Assembly: GCA_002423615.1 (NCBI GenBank)
Contig: DIKO01000105.1
Location: 507 to 64,506, forward strand
Direction of reading: 5' to 3'
DNA length: 64,000 nucleotides
Source of the DNA: Desulfobacteraceae bacterium UBA5616
Lineage (GTDB): Bacteria; Desulfobacterota; Desulfobacteria; Desulfobacterales; UBA5616
Made by a program: the position numbers and the translations under genes. Shown in pieces: positions 39,376 to 64,000 of the stretch. A model generated the notes under the pieces. It made no database searches. It was not told the DNA's origin and saw only the letters and a list, made by a program, of their open reading frames with translations. Every line of letters starts with the position of its first letter. Positions within the stretch are counted from its first letter, which is position 1.

Positions 39376-40554
39376 ATGGCATTTTTTTTCGCCATGGGAA
39401 GCCAGGGAATTGTCAGGGCCTGGCTGGCCTTTAACCTTACCCGGAGCGAACTCGCCCTGGGAACGGTGATGGTGGCCATGGCCGTTCCCATGTTTTTTAT
39501 TGCGCCTGTCGGGGGCGTCATATCGGACCGGATGGACCGGCGGAAACTGATCATCCTGGGACAGGCCCTGGTTCTGGCCAGCGAACTGACCATCACCCTC
39601 CTCCTGATTCTGGATAAGCTTTTGTTCTGGCATCTGCTCTGCGGGTCGGTGATAATGGGGTGCATTTTCCCTTTCATCATGCCGGCGCGTACCGCCATTG
39701 TGGTGAACATCGTCGGAAGGTTCGGCCTGGGAAAGGCCATGGGAATCAATATGGCGGGAATGAACGCAACGCGGATTCTGGGACCTGCTGCGGCAGGGTT
39801 TTTAATCGAAACCATCGGCGTAACCAACACCTACATTTTCGGCGCACTCCTCTACGGCATCGGAATTTTCTGCATGTTCCGCCTGGGCGATTTTCCACCG
39901 CCTGCCAAACCACAGGGAGCGACCATGGCCGGGAGCATCCTCGAAGGAATCGTTTATGTGAGGCAGCATCAACTCGTATTGGTCCTTTTGCTCTTCGGCC
40001 TGATTCCCATGTTCCTCGCCATGCCGTTTCAGAACCTCCTGGTCGTTTTCGCCGAAAAAATATGGGGGGTAGGCTCCAGAGGTCTGGGCATATTGAGCTC
40101 CGTAGGAGGGATCGGAGGGGTTATCGGATCCATCTGGGTGGCTTCCATGGGAAATAACGGGAAGCGGCTCGGGTGGATGATGTCGAGCATTGCGGCTTTC
40201 GGCTGTTTTCTCCTGGCATTTTCCTTCAGTCCCTATTTTCTGTTGTCTCTTCCCTTTATCCTGCTGGCCAATATCTTCGCCAGTGTTTTTGGAACCCTGA
40301 ACAATACGGCTATTCAGCTGGTCATACCGGATCATGTGCGGGGCCGGATATCAAGTTTTCTCATGATGTCGTTTTCCCTGCCCCTGCTGGGCACTTTGCC
40401 GGTAGCCGCTCTTGCGGAAGCCTACGGCGCTCCCCTGGCCGTAGGATCAGCGTCGGTGCTGGCCATGTCCGTAGCCTTTCTCTTCTATTTTTTCAGCACT
40501 TCCCTCCGTCAGCTGAACCGGCATATTCACCAGGCGATGAGGGAAAACAGATAG
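39376..40554 (+). CDS. MFS transporter (N-terminus unresolved)
   Basis: Protein of about 12 TM segments. The frame is open from 39247 and encodes MFS-like SPLRSPQFRWLFGSN upstream of ATG 39376, but with no in-frame start codon. Confidence 0.75.
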   Translation: MAFFFAMGSQGIVRAWLAFNLTRSELALGTVMVAMAVPMFFIAPVGGVISDRMDRRKLIILGQALVLASELTITLLLILDKLLFWHLLCGSVIMGCIFPFIMPARTAIVVNIVGRFGLGKAMGINMAGMNATRILGPAAAGFLIETIGVTNTYIFGALLYGIGIFCMFRLGDFPPPAKPQGATMAGSILEGIVYVRQHQLVLVLLLFGLIPMFLAMPFQNLLVVFAEKIWGVGSRGLGILSSVGGIGGVIGSIWVASMGNNGKRLGWMMSSIAAFGCFLLAFSFSPYFLLSLPFILLANIFASVFGTLNNTAIQLVIPDHVRGRISSFLMMSFSLPLLGTLPVAALAEAYGAPLAVGSASVLAMSVAFLFYFFSTSLRQLNRHIHQAMRENR

Positions 40555-54502: not shown

Positions 54503-54961
54503 ATGGGAAAATCAACCCAATTGAAAAAGGTTCTGGTTATCCATGGCCCGAATTTAAACATGCTGGGCAAAAGAGAGCCCGGGTTATACGGCACTCTCCC
54601 GCTTCCGGACATCAATCAGAAACTCACGGAACTGGCGAAAACCCTCGGTATGGGGGTTGACACCTTCCAATCCAACCATGAAGGCGGCATCATCGATAAA
54701 ATCCAGTCCGCCATGGGCAATTATGACGGTTTGATCATCAATCCCGCAGCCTACACACACACGAGTATCGGCATCCGGGACGCTCTGTTGCTGTTGAGCG
54801 TCCCGGTCATTGAGATTCATCTGTCGAACATTTATAAGCGGGAACCCTTCCGCCACAGGTCCATGATATCCGATATCGTCACGGCCCAGCTTGCCGGTTT
54901 CGGGCCGGACGGGTATTTCATGGCACTGGAAGCCATTCATAAAATATTGGAACAGCCGTGA
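54503..54961 (+). CDS. aroQ: type II 3-dehydroquinate dehydratase
   Basis: 152 aa with HGPNLNMLGKREPGLYG and IINPAAYTHTSIGIRDA. Confidence 0.95.
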   Translation: MGKSTQLKKVLVIHGPNLNMLGKREPGLYGTLPLPDINQKLTELAKTLGMGVDTFQSNHEGGIIDKIQSAMGNYDGLIINPAAYTHTSIGIRDALLLLSVPVIEIHLSNIYKREPFRHRSMISDIVTAQLAGFGPDGYFMALEAIHKILEQP

Positions 54962-57642: not shown

Positions 57643-58359
57643 TTACGATTCAGGATTTACAGCCTGCTGCGCCAATAGTTCTCTCAGCCATTCCGGTTCC
57701 GCCTGGGGATTGCCTTCCAGGAGGGCGGCAATTTTTCCAGTGACCTGCGCGGCGGCAAAACTGTGTCCCGAAAAATTCATGTTTTCAGGAATCCCAGTCA
57801 ATTTTCGCGGCCGGCCCGATGCGCCGAATTCGATCCTGCAGCCTGGATGGCAGATAATTTCCCCCTTCCGGCACTGCCGATTCCAATACACGCCGATGAC
57901 TCCGGGCAAGCCTGCGGGGAAAATATCGTCTTCCGGAGACCGTGCGGCGGCAACCATAATGATATGCTTCCTGTATGCTTCACGGCACAACTGCCCCAAC
58001 CTGGCCTTGCAGGCGTCCTGTTCGGTTCCGAGGCTTAAATGAATGATTTTCATATTCTCATCAATGGCCCATTTGAGCCCGGCTATAAGCAGGTCCACGG
58101 GCGCTTTTAATTTGTCATAAAATATTTTGACCGCATACATGTCCGCGTCCGGCGCCTTTTCCCGAATGACGCCGGCGATTGCCGTTCCATGGCCGATATG
58201 ATCGGAAAAATCAGGGTTCTCGATGATATCCGCGGTTTCATCCATCCGAAACGAAATACCTCCGGAAACACCATGGACATGGGGATGAAAGGGGTTAATC
58301 CCGCTGTCGATAATCGCCACCGGCACACTCATGGGCAAATCCTTCTGCCGGGCCTTCAT
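57643..58359 (-). CDS. qhpE: minimal subtilisin-like (S8) serine protease, QhpE-like leader peptidase candidate
   Basis: 238 aa with no pre-pro region. The catalytic triad context is AIIDSG (Asp), HGTAIAG (His) and SGHSFAAAQVTG (Ser). It is the last gene of the qhp-like cluster. The start is uncertain (58359, 58332 or 58326). Confidence 0.6.
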   Translation of the reverse strand: MKARQKDLPMSVPVAIIDSGINPFHPHVHGVSGGISFRMDETADIIENPDFSDHIGHGTAIAGVIREKAPDADMYAVKIFYDKLKAPVDLLIAGLKWAIDENMKIIHLSLGTEQDACKARLGQLCREAYRKHIIMVAAARSPEDDIFPAGLPGVIGVYWNRQCRKGEIICHPGCRIEFGASGRPRKLTGIPENMNFSGHSFAAAQVTGKIAALLEGNPQAEPEWLRELLAQQAVNPES

Positions 58360-60073
58360 ACGCCAGACCCCGGCTGTCTAAAGCAATAATTCTATCCGCA
58401 TGGGCGATCGCGGAATACCGGTGGCTCACGATCACGATGGTTTTATCTTCCATTAAATGACCCAGCGTGTCTTTTAAACGATCCTCCGTGGAAACATCCA
58501 CAAATGCCGTGGCCTCGTCCAGTATCAGGATTTTCGGCTTCATTAGAACGGCCCGGGCAATGCTGAGCCGCTGTTTTTGCCCGCCCGAAAGAAGTACGCC
58601 CCTGTCGCCTATGACCGTGTCATACCCGTTGGGCAGCGTTTGAATAAACCCGTCAATGCAGGCGGATTCAGCCGCCGACCGGACCTCGTCCATGCCGGCG
58701 CAGGGCTTTGGAAACCGGATATTTTCAAGGATGGTCGTATGAAACAGGAAAATATCCTGGGAAACAATTGCTGCCTGTTTGCGGAACCATTCTGGGTTAA
58801 TGGTTTTAAGATCAATGCCGCCGATTGTGATGACCCCTGAATCCGGGTCGAAAAGCCGCAGCATCAAATGGCATAAGGTTGTTTTCCCTGCTCCGCTGGG
58901 GCCGATGATTGCCGTGATCCTGCGGCCGGGGATCTGAAAGGACATATGGTTTACCACCGGTTTTCGATCATAGGCAAAACAGACATCCCGAAATTCAATA
59001 TCCCCGGTGACGGCGGCCTCTTTTTCCGGGATTATGCCGCCGCAGGTGGTTTGAACGGGCAAAATATCGAGAATCTCCCTGACCCTGGCCAGGCTGACCA
59101 GTGATTTCTGCAGGGATAAAAAACCGTCCATCAGCGCTTTTAACGGGCCGAATACCCTGCCCTGGTAGATCGAAAACGCCACCAGACTGCCGATCGTCAG
59201 GGTGTGTGCCAGCACGAGCGAACCGCCGTAACCGAATACCACCACGGCGTTGAGAATCACAAAAACGGTCGGAATTGATCCGGAAACAGCGCCCAGCACC
59301 TGATATCGCATCAGAAACCCCAGAATATGAGACTGTTTTTCATTGAGTCTGCTCCGCTCGATCTTTTCAGCGCCAAAGGCTCTGATCATATGGGTATTGC
59401 TGAGGGATTCAAATATAAAATGCGAAATTTCCGCGTTGCTTCGGGCCACCTGATGGCCCAGGTCCAGCAATTTCGGACGAAGGCGATAAATTATAATAAG
59501 GGCCGCCGGCAGAAAAGCGAAGCTTAACAACGCCATTTTCCAGTTCAATGCCATCAGCACGCCGGCGGCGATCAGACAGGTGAGCAGATTGAATGCGACC
59601 ATGGGAAGGACATCGGTCGCAAGGGATTGAATATCGGCCATATCCGATGCGATGCGGGAATAGAGATCCCCGATTTTCTGCTTTGAAAAAAAGTTGAGGG
59701 GAATTTTCTGAACGTGCTCGAACAGGTCCTCCCGCATGTGAAACAGTATTTGCGCGGAATAGCGCATATAGAGGAAGCTGTTGATCACCCGGATCGCAAA
59801 AGCAAACAGGATCAGGGCCAGGAGCAGTGATAACACGGGCCATAACAACCGGTGGTCGGCGGCAAGAAACACCTTGTCGATCAGAACCTTGGCAAAATAA
59901 GGCTGCGTCATTCCGAAAACAGTGCTCAGACCGCTTAACACAAGGGAAAGAATCAAGATTTTTTTCCGCGGCTTCAGGTATTTTCCCAGATAGGCAAGCT
60001 GTGTCCCGGAAATGTATCCGGCAACACCGTTTGATTTTTTCCGGATCGGTTTCAGGTTTCGCGAAAATAACAC
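58295..60073 (-). CDS. qhpF: ABC exporter (fused TMD-NBD), QhpF-like
   Basis: 592 aa with 6 TM segments plus an NBD (GPSGAGKTT, LSGGQKQRLSIARA, ILILDEAT). There is no C39 peptidase domain. Confidence 0.6.
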   Translation of the reverse strand: MLFSRNLKPIRKKSNGVAGYISGTQLAYLGKYLKPRKKILILSLVLSGLSTVFGMTQPYFAKVLIDKVFLAADHRLLWPVLSLLLALILFAFAIRVINSFLYMRYSAQILFHMREDLFEHVQKIPLNFFSKQKIGDLYSRIASDMADIQSLATDVLPMVAFNLLTCLIAAGVLMALNWKMALLSFAFLPAALIIIYRLRPKLLDLGHQVARSNAEISHFIFESLSNTHMIRAFGAEKIERSRLNEKQSHILGFLMRYQVLGAVSGSIPTVFVILNAVVVFGYGGSLVLAHTLTIGSLVAFSIYQGRVFGPLKALMDGFLSLQKSLVSLARVREILDILPVQTTCGGIIPEKEAAVTGDIEFRDVCFAYDRKPVVNHMSFQIPGRRITAIIGPSGAGKTTLCHLMLRLFDPDSGVITIGGIDLKTINPEWFRKQAAIVSQDIFLFHTTILENIRFPKPCAGMDEVRSAAESACIDGFIQTLPNGYDTVIGDRGVLLSGGQKQRLSIARAVLMKPKILILDEATAFVDVSTEDRLKDTLGHLMEDKTIVIVSHRYSAIAHADRIIALDSRGLAYEGPAEGFAHECAGGDYRQRD

Positions 60074-61041
60074 ATATACCCCTTTTCACAATACTGCGGC
60101 GTATTTCTGAGTTTTTTGGCCAAGGCCTCGACAGCATCCCACGTTGAATTGCGCCGGACTTCCGTCATGACTTCCGCAACCAGTTGAAGACTTCTCATTT
60201 TTCGATAAAAGGATGCCTCACGGCCGACGATTTTAACGGCGGAAACTCCCCAGTCCCTGAATTGCCCGAACCGGCAGAGGCTGCAGGGACCATTGGGCAA
60301 TCCTTCGGACTGGAAGCTGCATCCGCAATTGTTCTGATACCAGAGAAATTCACGGAACCTTTCCATGTCCTTCATAAGCGCTTCTTTGCCGATCTTCTTT
60401 CCCGATCCCGGAAAAAATTCAGGCGTCCAGTCGGTCATGCAAAACGGGCCCAGGGCATGGGAGGTCTGGCAAAATCCCTCTTCAAAATAACATCCGTCGT
60501 TAACGGCAAACACCTCGAATTCCATGTTCAACCTGTTTTTCTTGACGATCGATTCTATTTCAGAAAGATTCAGGTGCCGGGGGAGGATGATCCGTTTCAC
60601 GCCGAGAAAACCGTAGTATTCCACGGATTCCGAGTTGGTGCAGGCGCCCAGGCTGCTTAAATGGATTTTAACCGGCAGTTTTTCCTTGCCAAGCGCGATT
60701 AAAAAATTGAGATCCGATACGATCAGTCCGTCGATTTCAGCCAGCGCGACCAGTTTTTCGCAAAACCGCAAAATGGGTCCTACGCTGTCGTGAGGATAAA
60801 ACGGTGAATTAAACGTGATGTAAACCGCCGCCTCTTTTTCATGAGCAAGTTTTGTTATCTTCAAGACATCCTGAAATGAAAAGAGATTGCCCGCGGCCGG
60901 ATCCCTTCTGTTGATCCACAGTCCCCCGCCGTAGGCACTGTCCCATTCCGGCAGGCCGATGCCGGCATACAATTCATCCGCGCCGAAATGCAGAAGCATC
61001 TCCGTTTCTTCCAAACGACATACGGGGGCAGCAATTTTCAT
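60052..61041 (-). CDS. U32 family protein, UbiU-like
   Basis: 329 aa. EVFAVNDGCYFEEGFCQTS fits the spacing of the U32 signature E-x-F-x2-G-x2-C-x4-G-x-C-x2-S. SAVKIVGREAS resembles the UbiU segment ASVKIEGRQRS. It has additional Cys (CMTD, CGC, CSLC). Confidence 0.75.
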   Translation of the reverse strand: MKIAAPVCRLEETEMLLHFGADELYAGIGLPEWDSAYGGGLWINRRDPAAGNLFSFQDVLKITKLAHEKEAAVYITFNSPFYPHDSVGPILRFCEKLVALAEIDGLIVSDLNFLIALGKEKLPVKIHLSSLGACTNSESVEYYGFLGVKRIILPRHLNLSEIESIVKKNRLNMEFEVFAVNDGCYFEEGFCQTSHALGPFCMTDWTPEFFPGSGKKIGKEALMKDMERFREFLWYQNNCGCSFQSEGLPNGPCSLCRFGQFRDWGVSAVKIVGREASFYRKMRSLQLVAEVMTEVRRNSTWDAVEALAKKLRNTPQYCEKGYMCYFRET

Positions 61042-61047
61042 CGTATG

Positions 61048-61923
61048 TTATAACGCAAATCCTTGATACACGAGGCGGAATGAACCTTCCACCGAAGTAA
61101 AAACGGTGTTGAGCACGGCCGCTGGATACAGGTAGTAAATCGTATTGCCGTTTTGAAACAGTCTGAACTGAAACCGCTCATGCACCAGCTCCAGCACCTG
61201 ATGCGTGCAGGGCCGAAGGCAGTCTTCGCGGATCAAAAACTTTTCTCTTCCCTTCCCTTTTCGAGATTCGGCCTGGCACAGGCGGCCGGTAGTAACAACC
61301 CCAAAGGGAAAATATACGGATACTCCCATGTCCGAAAGGCCCCGGCTGATGCCGGATCCGTAGGGCAGGATGTCCTGCTCGATGCGCCGGACATTGATGG
61401 ATGACAGATGCTCCAGAAACGTCCGGTGGCGAAAAGTGCTCTCGTTGAGGGCATTCTGCATGGATTCAGACATCGAAGCGTCATCCCACGGCCAAACGAA
61501 CCGGGGGTCTTTGAATCCTTTGTTGAATAACCGGCCCGCAGCCAGGCGCAGACCGGGGTATTTTTTTCGCACATGCCATAAAACACCCGGGTCATTTGTG
61601 ACCACCTCGGCCCCCGGGCAGTCATTTTCAAGACAGGCAAACAGGGGGGCGCATTTTTCAAGATGCCGGTCGGTCATGGGCGGCGTCAGGAATGTCAGAC
61701 CGGCGGTGTGGTTTTGTGAAAACCGGCTGAACTCGCGGATTTCCTTTAACGAGGGCAGGCGGTGAAAACAAAATTCATCCCCGATATACAGCCGGTAAAT
61801 CTTTTCGGAACTGCAGCCAAAATCAGCAGGGACATTTTCCGGATAAAAGGAACGCAGATGGCGGATCAGGATATGTTCAGATATCTCCTGCTTCAGATCC
61901 CGCACATGAAACGCCAGTTCCAT
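61048..61923 (-). CDS. U32 family protein, UbiV-like
   Basis: 291 aa. LYIGDEFCFHRLPS resembles the UbiV segment IYLGEAVCSKRR. Further Cys are present (CAPLFACLENDC, GRLCQ, CLRPC). There is a 6-nt gap to the UbiU-like gene. Confidence 0.6.
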   Translation of the reverse strand: MELAFHVRDLKQEISEHILIRHLRSFYPENVPADFGCSSEKIYRLYIGDEFCFHRLPSLKEIREFSRFSQNHTAGLTFLTPPMTDRHLEKCAPLFACLENDCPGAEVVTNDPGVLWHVRKKYPGLRLAAGRLFNKGFKDPRFVWPWDDASMSESMQNALNESTFRHRTFLEHLSSINVRRIEQDILPYGSGISRGLSDMGVSVYFPFGVVTTGRLCQAESRKGKGREKFLIREDCLRPCTHQVLELVHERFQFRLFQNGNTIYYLYPAAVLNTVFTSVEGSFRLVYQGFAL

Positions 61924-61929
61924 TTGCCT

Positions 61930-62478
61930 CTATCGGGCGCCGCCGTCCGGTAAGGCGGCTGTTTCAACAGGTTTTACGGGTTCATAAAACTTTTGCCCGT
62001 TTCGCATTTCATGGTTATGGCAGTCTTTGCACGGCTGCCTCGAGATATCGTTGATCAGGGCTTTATGAATGGTGAGTTGATCGATTTCCTTATGGTTTTT
62101 AGCCTCCTTGCACGTAAAGCACCGGCTGTTGGGCACATGGCTCCAGTACCCGGGTTCCAGATCGTCTTTTAAAAAAAGCGGTTCGGCAATGGGTTTCAGG
62201 GGTTCATCGGGGTCTCTTTTAAAATGGGCTACCAATTGCTTTGCCGACGAAACGTTCATGTCCATCCACCCGGCAAACCCGGCATCAAAGTGACAACCTG
62301 CGCAGTTCGGATGATTTTTGGCGGTCCGGGATTCTTTCCAGCGGTTGACCGGATCTCTCATCTCATGGCAGACAATGCAGGTCTTGTCCGGGAAATATCG
62401 CATCGAGGCTTCATGTACGCCAAGCCCCAGGAAAAACAACACCAGCAAAACGGTGACGATCGATATCTTCTTTTTCAT
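61930..62478 (-). CDS. membrane-anchored NapC/NirT/NrfH-type multihaem cytochrome c
   Basis: 182 aa with an N-terminal TM. Haem motifs are CIVCHEM (CxxCHxM, as in NrfH haem 1), CAGCH, CFTCK (Lys in place of His) and CKDCH. Confidence 0.8.
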   Translation of the reverse strand: MKKKISIVTVLLVLFFLGLGVHEASMRYFPDKTCIVCHEMRDPVNRWKESRTAKNHPNCAGCHFDAGFAGWMDMNVSSAKQLVAHFKRDPDEPLKPIAEPLFLKDDLEPGYWSHVPNSRCFTCKEAKNHKEIDQLTIHKALINDISRQPCKDCHNHEMRNGQKFYEPVKPVETAALPDGGAR

Positions 62479-62516: not shown

Positions 62517-63548
62517 TTATTGTGAAAACCGATTGAACACCATGGCATCCCCGCCCACGGGAATGGCCGTCTCGAATTTCAACGTTTCTGCGTCATAAAT
62601 GCTGACATCCGCGCCCATGGCCCCGATATAGACTTTCTTTCCATCCGGGCTCAAGGCGATGGAGGTATAGCTTCCCCTTTCCGCATAGGTCGCGTTGACT
62701 GTTTCCCCGGTGGCCACATCCACTTTGACCAGTTCATCGTGACCGGCATAGATGTATTTTTTGTCCGGCGACAACGCAGCGGAAAAAGGCATGGCCATCT
62801 CCTTGCTCTTGATCGACCTGATTTCTCCGGATACCATATCCAGAATCAGATAATACAACCCGGAGGACGCGTAATACGGAGCGGCAAACAACTGATGGTC
62901 TCCGGGACTGTTGTTGGTGTACATGGCGACGATGCTTCTTTGCTCCTGGTCTTTTTCCGCATGAATGCCGGCCATGATCATTTCAAGTTCACCGGTTTTC
63001 AGATTGATTTTATACACATCCAGCCCGAACAGAATCGCATGGTCCGGGTCATTTCGAACCGGAAATATGCCGTGGACCCCATAGGGCAATTCGTAACTCC
63101 GAACCACTTCCTTCTTCCCGATGTCAAATATCGCAAACTGCGGGGGCAGAACATTGAGTTTGGGAATATTCTGCTTTTTCTTGACGATCTGGCAGCTTAC
63201 AAAGAGTTGTTTCCCGTCGTTGGACACCGCTGTGGTAAAAATCGTCACACGGCTCAGATCCGTTGAAAATCTGTACGTATCGATCAGTGAAAAGGTCTTC
63301 GTATCCACTGCAAAAATGGAATGCAGGGCATTGAGATAATATCTCCTCCCGTCCGGCGAATAGCTGGTATTCAACACATAATCGGAGTAACGCGCGCCCT
63401 CGATGACCCGGCCGGTTTCGCAGTTCACCACATCCAGCCCCTTTACGGTGGGGACAAGGATGTAATCGACAGCCAGGACGGGCAATTGGAAAAGTGCCCA
63501 TACCACCAAAGTCCATAGAAAAATCACAAGCTTGATTCTGCTTTTCAT
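62517..63548 (-). CDS. qhpB: secreted 7-bladed-type beta-propeller, QhpB (amine dehydrogenase beta subunit)-like
   Basis: 343 aa with a signal peptide and repeated YVTN-type blades (SYSPDGRRYYL, AVSNDGKQLFVS, ALSPDKKYIYAG, ALSPDGKKVYIG). Its size and its position after the qhpC-like gene match QhpB. Confidence 0.6.
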   Translation of the reverse strand: MKSRIKLVIFLWTLVVWALFQLPVLAVDYILVPTVKGLDVVNCETGRVIEGARYSDYVLNTSYSPDGRRYYLNALHSIFAVDTKTFSLIDTYRFSTDLSRVTIFTTAVSNDGKQLFVSCQIVKKKQNIPKLNVLPPQFAIFDIGKKEVVRSYELPYGVHGIFPVRNDPDHAILFGLDVYKINLKTGELEMIMAGIHAEKDQEQRSIVAMYTNNSPGDHQLFAAPYYASSGLYYLILDMVSGEIRSIKSKEMAMPFSAALSPDKKYIYAGHDELVKVDVATGETVNATYAERGSYTSIALSPDGKKVYIGAMGADVSIYDAETLKFETAIPVGGDAMVFNRFSQ

Positions 63549-63562
63549 GGCGGCGCCCCCTT

Positions 63563-63889
63563 TTACCTTTTAATCACATAATTCAAATTTTTCCAATCTT
63601 TCTGAATCGTTGCGCACTGTTCCTGATAATCGGGGAAAGCGGTGATGTTGTCCGGGGTCTGGGCCGGCCACCAGCACGGTCCGGAGCAGTTGCTCCAGTC
63701 CCGCGCGCTGGAAGCACAATTTCCAACAGGCGCCGCAGGATTGGGGTTGGTCTCCCAGCCGGGATCAAAAACAGTGGTGCAGCCGATGGGCATTCCGGTG
63801 ATCACATCTTCATCCGCCATGCCGAAAACTTCTTCTTCCGCCATTTTCTTTGCCCTCCTGTTAATGGGCTTCAATCCTTTTTTCTTCAT
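63563..63889 (-). CDS. qhpC: QhpC-like gamma-subunit precursor (cysteine tryptophylquinone / thioether-crosslinked peptide)
   Basis: 108 aa. A basic/acidic leader is followed by GCTTVFDPGWE...NCASSARDWSNCSGPCWWPAQTPD. The spacings C37-E46 (9), C58-D64 (6), C68-W74 (6) and C72-D80 (8) equal those of the known crosslinks. An AAGGGGG RBS is present. Confidence 0.8.
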   Translation of the reverse strand: MKKKGLKPINRRAKKMAEEEVFGMADEDVITGMPIGCTTVFDPGWETNPNPAAPVGNCASSARDWSNCSGPCWWPAQTPDNITAFPDYQEQCATIQKDWKNLNYVIKR

Positions 63890-63904: not shown

Positions 63905-64000
63905 TCAATGTCCTCTGAGTCGTGCAAGACGATCCAGATAGTCGGGCCGGTCGATGGCAAGCTTGGCATACACCGTCAGCCCGATTCCCGTCCATTCCCT
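63905..64000 (-). CDS. 3' end of an unidentified upstream gene (5' part outside the window)
   Basis: Open frame ...REWTGIGLTVYAKLAIDRPDYLDRLARLRGH ends at TGA 63905-63907, 15 nt before the qhpC-like start. Synteny with qhpADCB would predict a qhpD-type radical SAM gene, but the sequence visible here cannot show that. Confidence 0.4.
   Translation of the reverse strand, partial: REWTGIGLTVYAKLAIDRPDYLDRLARLRGH

Follow-up and report, generated by a model that had tools for sequence, protein, structure and literature searches.

The stretch analysed here (the window) comprises 64,000 nucleotides (nt) of contig DIKO01000105.1 from Desulfobacteraceae bacterium UBA5616. Its last 6.4 kilobases (kb) are a minus-strand operon, nearly without intergenic space, for quinohemoprotein amine dehydrogenase (QHNDH) and the maturation of its cysteine tryptophylquinone (CTQ) cofactor. 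Two adjacent genes in the middle of this operon, encoding a partner protein of 291 amino acids (aa) and a U32 protein of 329 aa, are the subject of this report. Clusters of this kind were found mostly to carry either this pair or the gene for the tryptophan dihydroxylase QhpG, and the pair is proposed here to do the work of QhpG.

The genes run in the order qhpA-D-C-B, NrfH-like cytochrome, 291-aa gene, 329-aa gene, qhpF and qhpE (Table 1). qhpD is found in full on the same contig in public assemblies (472 aa, Radical_SAM/Fer4_12), where it is preceded by qhpA (545 aa) and then by a divergent TetR gene. The two reading frames of the pair are separated by 6 nt, a further 6 nt lie between the 291-aa frame and the stop codon of the cytochrome gene (61930), and the 329-aa frame overlaps the ABC gene (GTG start at 60073) by 22 nt; an earlier reading of the letters alone (the sequence-only reading) had given exactly these spacings. 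Gene calls of two public assemblies of the same contig independently agree with the layout. The 329-aa gene starts at Met15 (315 aa) in one public gene call; the start used here restores the family-wide N-terminus MKIxAP, which aligns with MELLCP of UbiU. Public gene calls give 58332 as an alternative start of qhpE. By inspection, neither protein of the pair carries a signal peptide.

The operon resembles the canonical qhpADCBEFGR operon of Paracoccus denitrificans and Pseudomonas putida in that qhpA, D, C, B, E and F are present with key residues kept; unlike it, the operon has the U32 pair for qhpG, a TetR-type regulator and an NrfH-like cytochrome, the last being an addition of the Desulfobacterota version. 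The window QhpC was aligned to PDB 1JJU_C and 1JMX_G, and all of C7/E16, C27/D33 and C41/D49 (the three thioether pairs) and C37 and W43 (the CTQ residues; mature numbering throughout) are kept. Because the tryptophan and cysteine of CTQ and every thioether pair are retained, two oxygens still need to be inserted. In the canonical system both come from O2 and are inserted by QhpG, the flavin adenine dinucleotide (FAD) peptidyl-tryptophan dihydroxylase of the CTQ precursor, which also promotes cross-linking by QhpD through a ternary complex that stabilises QhpC-QhpD (PMC7876137). Homology searches located no QhpG homologue in the 64-kb window or in the operon on the contig. We know of no tryptophan dihydroxylase other than QhpG. 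The amino-acid-derived quinone cofactors (topaquinone, TPQ; lysine tyrosylquinone, LTQ; tryptophan tryptophylquinone, TTQ; and CTQ) are textbook products of oxygen-dependent self-processing or of oxygenase chemistry, and QHNDH works in denitrifying and sulfate-reducing bacteria. Going by its title as cited, a 2019 paper by Schmitt et al. reportedly concerns two QHNDHs of Aromatoleum and their part in anaerobic amine degradation.

Table 1. Genes of the qhp operon within the window
Feature	Position	Strand	Basis and remarks
qhpD (3' end), radical-SAM thioether-forming maturase	63905..64000	-	stop codon read; gene continues past window end
qhpC, gamma subunit precursor of QHNDH, bears the future CTQ tryptophan	63563..63889	-	NCBIfam QH_gamma 120.5 bits (cut-off 50); Pfam PF08992 2.4e-19
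qhpB-like beta-propeller subunit	62517..63548	-	NCBIfam QH_beta 5.1e-24, under equivalog cut-off
NrfH/NapC-type tetrahaem cytochrome, membrane-anchored	61930..62478	-	Pfam Cytochrom_NNT 2.1e-8; NCBIfam NrfH 1.9e-7
Small partner of the U32 pair, 291 aa, probably UbiV-like	61048..61923	-	invariant C52, C216, C235, C239; profile comparison
Large subunit of the U32 pair, 329 aa, UbiU-like (predicted)	60052..61041	-	PF01136 97.8 bits; ligand-equivalent Cys
qhpF, ABC exporter for the processed gamma subunit	58295..60073	-	ABC_membrane + ABC_tran; position conserved in qhp clusters
qhpE, subtilisin-like leader peptidase	57643..58359	-	NCBIfam QhpE NF049966 163.3 bits (cut-off 165); Peptidase_S8 2e-19

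The large subunit and its small partner

The 329-aa protein is unambiguously a U32 protein. It matched Pfam PF01136 with 97.8 bits (cut-off 22.4) over residues 100-325, and this was the sole domain in the Pfam scan, in which U32_C and DUF3656 were not found. Its family was aligned by hhalign to an alignment of nine UbiU sequences at 99.7% (E 1.7e-26, 250 columns). The AlphaFold (AF2) model had a mean predicted local distance difference test (pLDDT) score of 87.1, and its top Foldseek match in the PDB was 5D88 (E 9.3e-8), the only solved U32 structure, whose TIM-barrel fold the model shares. The first homologue search returned 549 matches.

Within the U32 family the protein stands near UbiU and apart from it. 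The NCBIfam UbiU equivalog NF047963 scored 66.5 bits (cut-off 440) and the TrhP equivalog 62.5 bits (cut-off 534). Forty-six large subunits linked to qhp genes formed a single clade that is sister to UbiU and separate from E. coli TrhP and RlhA, in a simple neighbour-joining tree with few outgroups; the sequence-only reading had named clustering with proteolytic or RNA-modifying U32 proteins as a result that would speak against it. In residues 176-194, EVFAVNDGCYFEEGFCQTS, the U32 signature is recognisable by its E, F, C, G, C and S, all correctly spaced, as that reading had noted; four other signature positions differ. The segment VKIVGREAS resembles VKIEGRQRS of UbiU, so the KIxGRxxS likeness that had been pointed out was also found.

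The conservation of the cysteines in both proteins was established by mapping them onto the UbiU and UbiV ligands. C184, C191, C201 and C253 of the 329-aa protein share columns with C169, C176, C193 and C232 of UbiU and are conserved in 100% of the 46 qhp-linked sequences. The four UbiU residues are the experimentally defined [4Fe-4S] ligands of that protein (PMC6747719). A UbiU-like protein with an Fe-S cluster is therefore what the alignment predicts for the 329-aa gene. Four more cysteines, C239, C256, C318 and C324, are invariant or nearly so in the qhp-linked clade, occur in none of UbiU, TrhP and RlhA, and possibly form an extra metal or cluster site.

The 291-aa protein is far more cryptic. 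It matched no Pfam or NCBIfam model, BLASTP against E. coli UbiV and against the 329-aa protein was empty, and a PDB sequence-profile search gave nothing relevant. The first homologue search returned 121 matches, and a profile of the family collected 2081 cluster representatives (50% identity) at E <= 1e-3, of which 1530 were at E <= 1e-10; wherever members are named they are called hypothetical protein. The gene adjoins the U32 gene in every locus with enough sequence. The AF2 model (pLDDT 89.8) is beta/alpha barrel-like.

Comparison with UbiV was made at the level of profiles. A search for UbiV homologues gave Enterobacterales only, at >=85% identity, and diverse UbiU and UbiV sequences were taken from PLSDB chromids. 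The 291-aa alignment was then matched by hhalign to a 13-sequence UbiV alignment at 88.9% (E 2.4e-6; residues 21-134 against UbiV 15-117), for which genuine UbiU against UbiV served as a yardstick (94.6%, E 6.5e-8). In this alignment YIGDEFC52 is paired with YLGEAVC39 of UbiV, the pairing already drawn in the sequence-only reading. PF01136 was the commonest sub-threshold Pfam match in the wider family (7 of 131 members, best E 0.0039), other families appearing once or twice each. The pattern C52-x163-C216-x18-C235-x3-C239 is invariant across 50 loci from several phyla or classes; its UbiV counterpart is C-xn-C-x12-C-x3-C. C52, C235 and C239 fall in the columns of UbiV C39, C193 and C197, and C216 is one residue off UbiV C180, these four being the UbiV ligands (PMC6747719). 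As for the three more cysteine clusters reported earlier for this protein, C216 and C235/C239 proved 100% conserved and C91, C97 and C102 are not conserved. On account of the hhalign match, the recurrent weak match to PF01136 and the invariant cysteine pattern, the 291-aa protein is probably a strongly diverged U32/UbiV relative. Of the earlier designation as a UbiU/UbiV-type U32 pair, the U32 assignment of the large subunit is clear and that of the small one only probable.

Distribution of the pair and of QhpG

Occurrence was scored in a scan of one genome per species that was anchored on QhpC alone, and so was blind to both U32 and QhpG. It yielded 80 loci with 10-kb flanks, whose stop-to-stop translations were scored against hidden Markov models of both U32 families and of verified QhpG. 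The QhpG reference was the Colwellia sequence L066 (432 bits for NF049967; E 3e-82 to PDB 7CTQ).

The pair alone was present in 42 loci (and in one more that is truncated inside the U32 gene), QhpG alone in 20, both in two and neither in 15, most of the last being partial clusters or clusters interrupted by a contig end. Where all six core genes are present, the pair and QhpG are both missing from just two loci (L074 and L077), each of which touches a contig end. Complementarity of the pair with QhpG was thereby established (Fisher's exact test, uncorrected for phylogeny: p = 1e-12 for complete clusters, 1e-7 for all loci). On the QhpD tree the pair-type clusters occupy deep branches and the QhpG-type clusters form one derived clade. 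Two both-type loci (L087, L088) and one pair-type locus (L059) are nested inside that clade, so the pattern is more than a single split. The both-type loci, L087:5497-15827 and L088:5167-15837, are from proteobacterial metagenome-assembled genomes and hold QhpG and the U32 pair in one qhp cluster, which recalls UbiH/F/I plus UbiU/V in E. coli.

Pair-type clusters predominate in Desulfobacterota (Desulfosarcina variabilis and Desulforhabdus among others), in Desulfuromonadales and in many Betaproteobacteria (Sterolibacterium, Casimicrobiaceae, Burkholderiales). Further hosts of this type are Geobacter, some Gammaproteobacteria and a few Alphaproteobacteria (Terasakiella). Strict anaerobes among them are Desulfobacula toluolica, Desulfosarcina variabilis, Desulforhabdus and Geobacter. 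QhpG-type hosts include Paracoccus, Azospirillum, Rhodospirillum, Colwellia and Salipiger, with others.

Conserved synteny was established from the opposite direction as well. A reverse scan on the 291-aa family gave 69 metagenome loci, all close relatives; it was seeded with alignment A1 (A4 being too diverse) and is biased towards the Desulfobacterota clade, and every locus with a usable flank carries qhp genes. Single look-ups agree, among them one in Desulfobacula toluolica Tol2, a strict anaerobe with a complete genome. In all, over 100 independent loci, spread across several phyla or classes, have the pair beside qhp genes; an occurrence in this genome only would have counted against the sequence-only reading. 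No other candidate for an oxygen-inserting enzyme is conserved in the pair-type clusters examined.

The absence of a ubiT-like SCP2 gene, also noted earlier, was confirmed by homology search of the 64-kb window, in which no SCP2/UbiT homologue and no second U32 gene was located. UbiT was likewise absent from gene-call and Pfam tables of related clusters, on which no search aimed at UbiT was made.

Individual loci depart from the common arrangement. In L009, L140 and L161 the order is qhpA-C-B-D, followed by a second QhpB-like paralogue, the pair, qhpF, qhpE and the cytochrome. A 2.4-Mb Deltaproteobacteria genome holds a cluster that is either degraded or minimal (L008:8396-11688): besides qhpC and qhpB it has the small partner and a U32 gene that is cut short (182 aa as called), and qhpA, D, E and F are all missing from its surroundings. 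On a 2.8-Mb contig that bears the label 'uncultured Draconibacterium sp.' (L012), the qhp locus has the same layout and near-identical scores as that of Desulfosarcina variabilis (L013), and the label looks wrong. Distant relatives of both proteins (22-30% identity) lie adjacent to each other, in the order U32 then partner, in L168:8947-10750 and L170:6450-8368 and also in L171-L175, and the 14-20 kb around them hold no qhp gene. In L168 they are accompanied by a B12-radical-SAM gene, PMT_2, glycosyltransferases and Wzy, and in L170 by a URO-D-like gene. A module of a U32 protein and a cryptic UbiV-like partner may therefore serve other pathways too.

Other genes of the window and of related clusters

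The place of qhpB directly after qhpC is kept in all loci compared. The assignment of qhpF as exporter was taken from the literature (PMC7876137). The NrfH-like cytochrome has the haem motifs CIVCHEM, CAGCH, CFTCK and CKDCH; it occurs only in Desulfobacterota-type qhp clusters and has at times moved to after qhpE. Its first motif is CxxCHxM, as in NrfH, and among 54 homologues (L001-L167) the third motif is CxxCK in 36 and CxxCH in 17. The cytochrome probably serves as an electron relay between the periplasmic dehydrogenase and the menaquinone pool, which would receive the electrons.

Some Desulfobacterota clusters hold a gene for a Phenol_MetA_deg-type outer-membrane channel between qhpD and qhpC (L004:6027-6854, L006:7110-7940), which may be a substrate uptake pore. 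A tungsten aldehyde oxidoreductase (AOR) and a ThiS-like protein are encoded beside pair-type clusters in Desulfobacula toluolica (L004:13445-15417, where AOR follows the cluster) and in L008:14607-16972, and an aldehyde dehydrogenase of the NAD type flanks another (L006:2489-3913). These flanking aldehyde-oxidising enzymes fit a route from amine through aldehyde to acid.

Elsewhere in the window, tandem 392-aa reading frames on the plus strand (37741-38919 and 39376-40554) begin with one that has a CdhD-like domain (CO dehydrogenase/acetyl-CoA synthase delta subunit), a hint of an anaerobic host. aroQ, for the type II 3-dehydroquinate dehydratase of the shikimate pathway to prephenate, is encoded at 54503-54961 (+), 3 kb from the operon. 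It was considered as a prephenate supply for the pair and rejected, as it lies on the opposite strand among rpe, rsmB, fmt and def, and none was seen near the Desulfobacula locus L004; its closeness to the operon is probably coincidental.

Proposed role of the pair in CTQ maturation

All U32 proteins whose role is known are linked to hydroxylations that need no O2 and take place on an aromatic or heteroaromatic carbon (PMC6747719, PMC10990095, PMC5727448, PMC11574389). UbiU-UbiV is a heterodimer with one [4Fe-4S] cluster in each subunit that hydroxylates three ring positions of the ubiquinone precursor (PMC6747719), TrhP acts on tRNA U34 and RlhA on C2501 of 23S rRNA (PMC5727448, PMC11574389). 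All three show a genetic dependence on prephenate (PMC5727448, PMC10990095, PMC11574389), and prephenate is the shown oxygen donor for ubiquinone (PMC10990095). Because the known U32 roles are O2-independent, prephenate-dependent hydroxylations, the pair is proposed to be an O2-independent replacement of QhpG, that is, a cytoplasmic heterodimeric U32 Fe-S hydroxylase dedicated to QHNDH maturation. From the sequence evidence, a probability of roughly two in three (0.68) was assigned to this proposal.

In the mechanism envisaged, the QhpC precursor would first be cross-linked by QhpD. The U32 pair would then place two hydroxyls on the indole ring of W43, with the oxygen supplied not by O2 but by an organic donor, for which prephenate, as in the case of UbiU-UbiV, is the likeliest candidate. 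Four electrons would exit through [4Fe-4S] clusters, one per subunit, and possibly through a third on the four extra cysteines of the large subunit. The leader would next be cut off by QhpE and the peptide exported by QhpF, and in the periplasm it would join QhpA and QhpB and become CTQ-bearing. The NrfH-like cytochrome, a lineage-specific addition, would tie amine oxidation to the menaquinone pool.

The closest known system is UbiU-UbiV (E. coli YhbU/YhbV). In both, adjacent genes encode proteins of ~330 and ~290 aa, of which the large one has PF01136 with CX6C...C...C at the UbiU ligands and the small one a far-upstream Cys plus C...CX3C, as in UbiV. Like UbiU-UbiV, the qhp pair is predicted to be a two-subunit Fe-S enzyme that modifies an electron-rich aromatic ring in more than one place. 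UbiU-UbiV is an alternative to the flavin monooxygenases UbiH/F/I, as the qhp pair would be to QhpG, and some genomes keep both routes. Unlike UbiU-UbiV, the qhp pair forms a separate clade, has the small-subunit gene first (the order reversed) and is without UbiT/SCP2 in the window; its small subunit is too diverged for Pfam, its large subunit has four extra Cys, and its likely substrate is a Trp in a cross-linked peptide and not a polyprenyl phenol. The sequence-only reading had placed the pair outside a quinone context, which holds for isoprenoid quinones and fails in that the context is biogenesis of the protein-derived quinone CTQ.

QhpG (PDB 7CTQ, NF049967) would share with the pair a functional slot and, presumably, the reaction on QhpC Trp43, and the two are complementary in distribution. 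They are not homologous: QhpG is a single-component FAD monooxygenase, whereas the pair is predicted to be an Fe-S TIM-barrel pair and has no flavin-binding motif. TrhP (YegQ; the Bacillus TrhP1/TrhP2 heterodimer) and RlhA are likewise U32 proteins with conserved Cys, and TrhP1/TrhP2 shows that heterodimers of low-identity paralogues are known. They perform O2-independent hydroxylation of a heteroaromatic carbon with a genetic need for prephenate (PMC5727448, PMC11574389). In contrast to them the qhp pair lacks U32_C and DUF3656 and lies outside their branches, and their substrate is RNA.

Several points weigh against the proposal. Substrate, oxygen donor, heterodimer and electron route are all inferred, and U32 hydroxylation has so far not been demonstrated in vitro for any member (PMC10990095, PMC11574389). 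U32 homology of the 291-aa protein is moderately supported: none of 98 close members of its family matched PF01136, nor did any match another Pfam model, the significant hhalign alignment to UbiV spans the N-terminal half only, and Foldseek of the model against the PDB gave generic beta/alpha-barrel matches only. The statistic for complementarity with QhpG ignores shared ancestry, and complementarity was counted within loci, so that a qhpG elsewhere in pair-type genomes is possible. Some pair-type hosts are probably aerobic or facultative (Rubrivivax, Oceanospirillum, Casimicrobiaceae), and the pair is therefore not confined to anaerobes.

The only serious alternative is that the pair assists maturation without hydroxylating, either by giving or taking up electrons as an Fe-S protein or as a scaffold for QhpD, with the oxygens coming from water or from another enzyme. 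The cysteine sets of both proteins would suit Fe-S electron transfer, part of the role of QhpG is itself non-catalytic in that its ternary complex aids cross-linking by QhpD (PMC7876137), and in vitro hydroxylation by a U32 protein has yet to be reconstituted (PMC11574389). We nevertheless regard an accessory role as unlikely: the enzyme that the pair complements in distribution is specifically QhpG, for which dihydroxylation is the essential activity, the pair-type clusters conserve no other oxygen-inserting candidate, and all U32 proteins of known role have a link to hydroxylation.

It is very improbable that the two are true collagenase-like U32 peptidases that process QhpC or another subunit. 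The family name, the collagenolytic activity reported for PrtC and HP0169 (mentioned in PMC5727448) and the leader-bearing peptide that the cluster matures could all be read that way; yet a dedicated leader protease, QhpE (163.3 bits), is present, QhpG-type clusters need no second protease, and the invariant residues are Fe-S-type Cys common to UbiU/UbiV in a clade that is sister to UbiU. Least probable of all is that an ordinary UbiU/UbiV for isoprenoid quinone, or an RNA-modifying U32 protein, is merely located in the operon: the sizes (329/291 aa against 331/292 aa) and Cys motifs are like those of UbiU/UbiV, but the UbiU and TrhP scores lie far under their cut-offs, the clade is separate from UbiU, TrhP and RlhA, there is no UbiT in the window, the qhp synteny recurs in more than 100 loci, and the 6-nt gaps and the 22-nt overlap put the pair inside the operon.

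The complementarity of the pair with QhpG, and with it the proposed replacement of QhpG, is the new and main result; the protein family and its chemistry are known, and the substrate class and the role would be new. A full-text literature search found nothing that links U32 to qhp, tryptophylquinone to U32 or CTQ to prephenate, and no paper found to mention QhpG discusses U32, within a scope outside which subscription literature including Schmitt et al. 2019 may mention U32 genes. A 2024 review lists ubiquinone and RNA as the only substrates of 'U32 oxidases' (PMC11574389), and NCBIfam has dedicated models for QhpE and QhpG and none for either protein of the pair.

We lean slightly, with less assurance than for the replacement of QhpG itself, towards a fuller account in which the pair is the first of the U32 hydroxylases found to act on a protein, both tryptophylquinone oxygens come from prephenate without O2, the route is the older one and was later displaced by the flavin/O2 enzyme after oxygenation, and a third cluster on the four extra cysteines wires the active site to its acceptor. 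That the pair route is ancestral is suggested by the deep position of pair-type clusters on the QhpD tree, where the QhpG clade is derived and includes 'both' intermediates.

If the proposal is true, the pair would be the first U32 enzyme to modify a protein, and prephenate-type U32 hydroxylation would be widened from lipids and RNA to proteins. The making of CTQ in strict anaerobes would be explained, by a pair that is oxygen-independent rather than restricted to anaerobes. Annotation would then gain a rule: where qhpB and qhpF enclose a gene for a 'hypothetical protein' and, after it, one for a 'U32 family peptidase', the two encode a CTQ maturation enzyme and not a protease. The pair would also offer a soluble, compact system for reconstitution in vitro, with a peptide substrate, a two-gene enzyme and a mass-shift readout.

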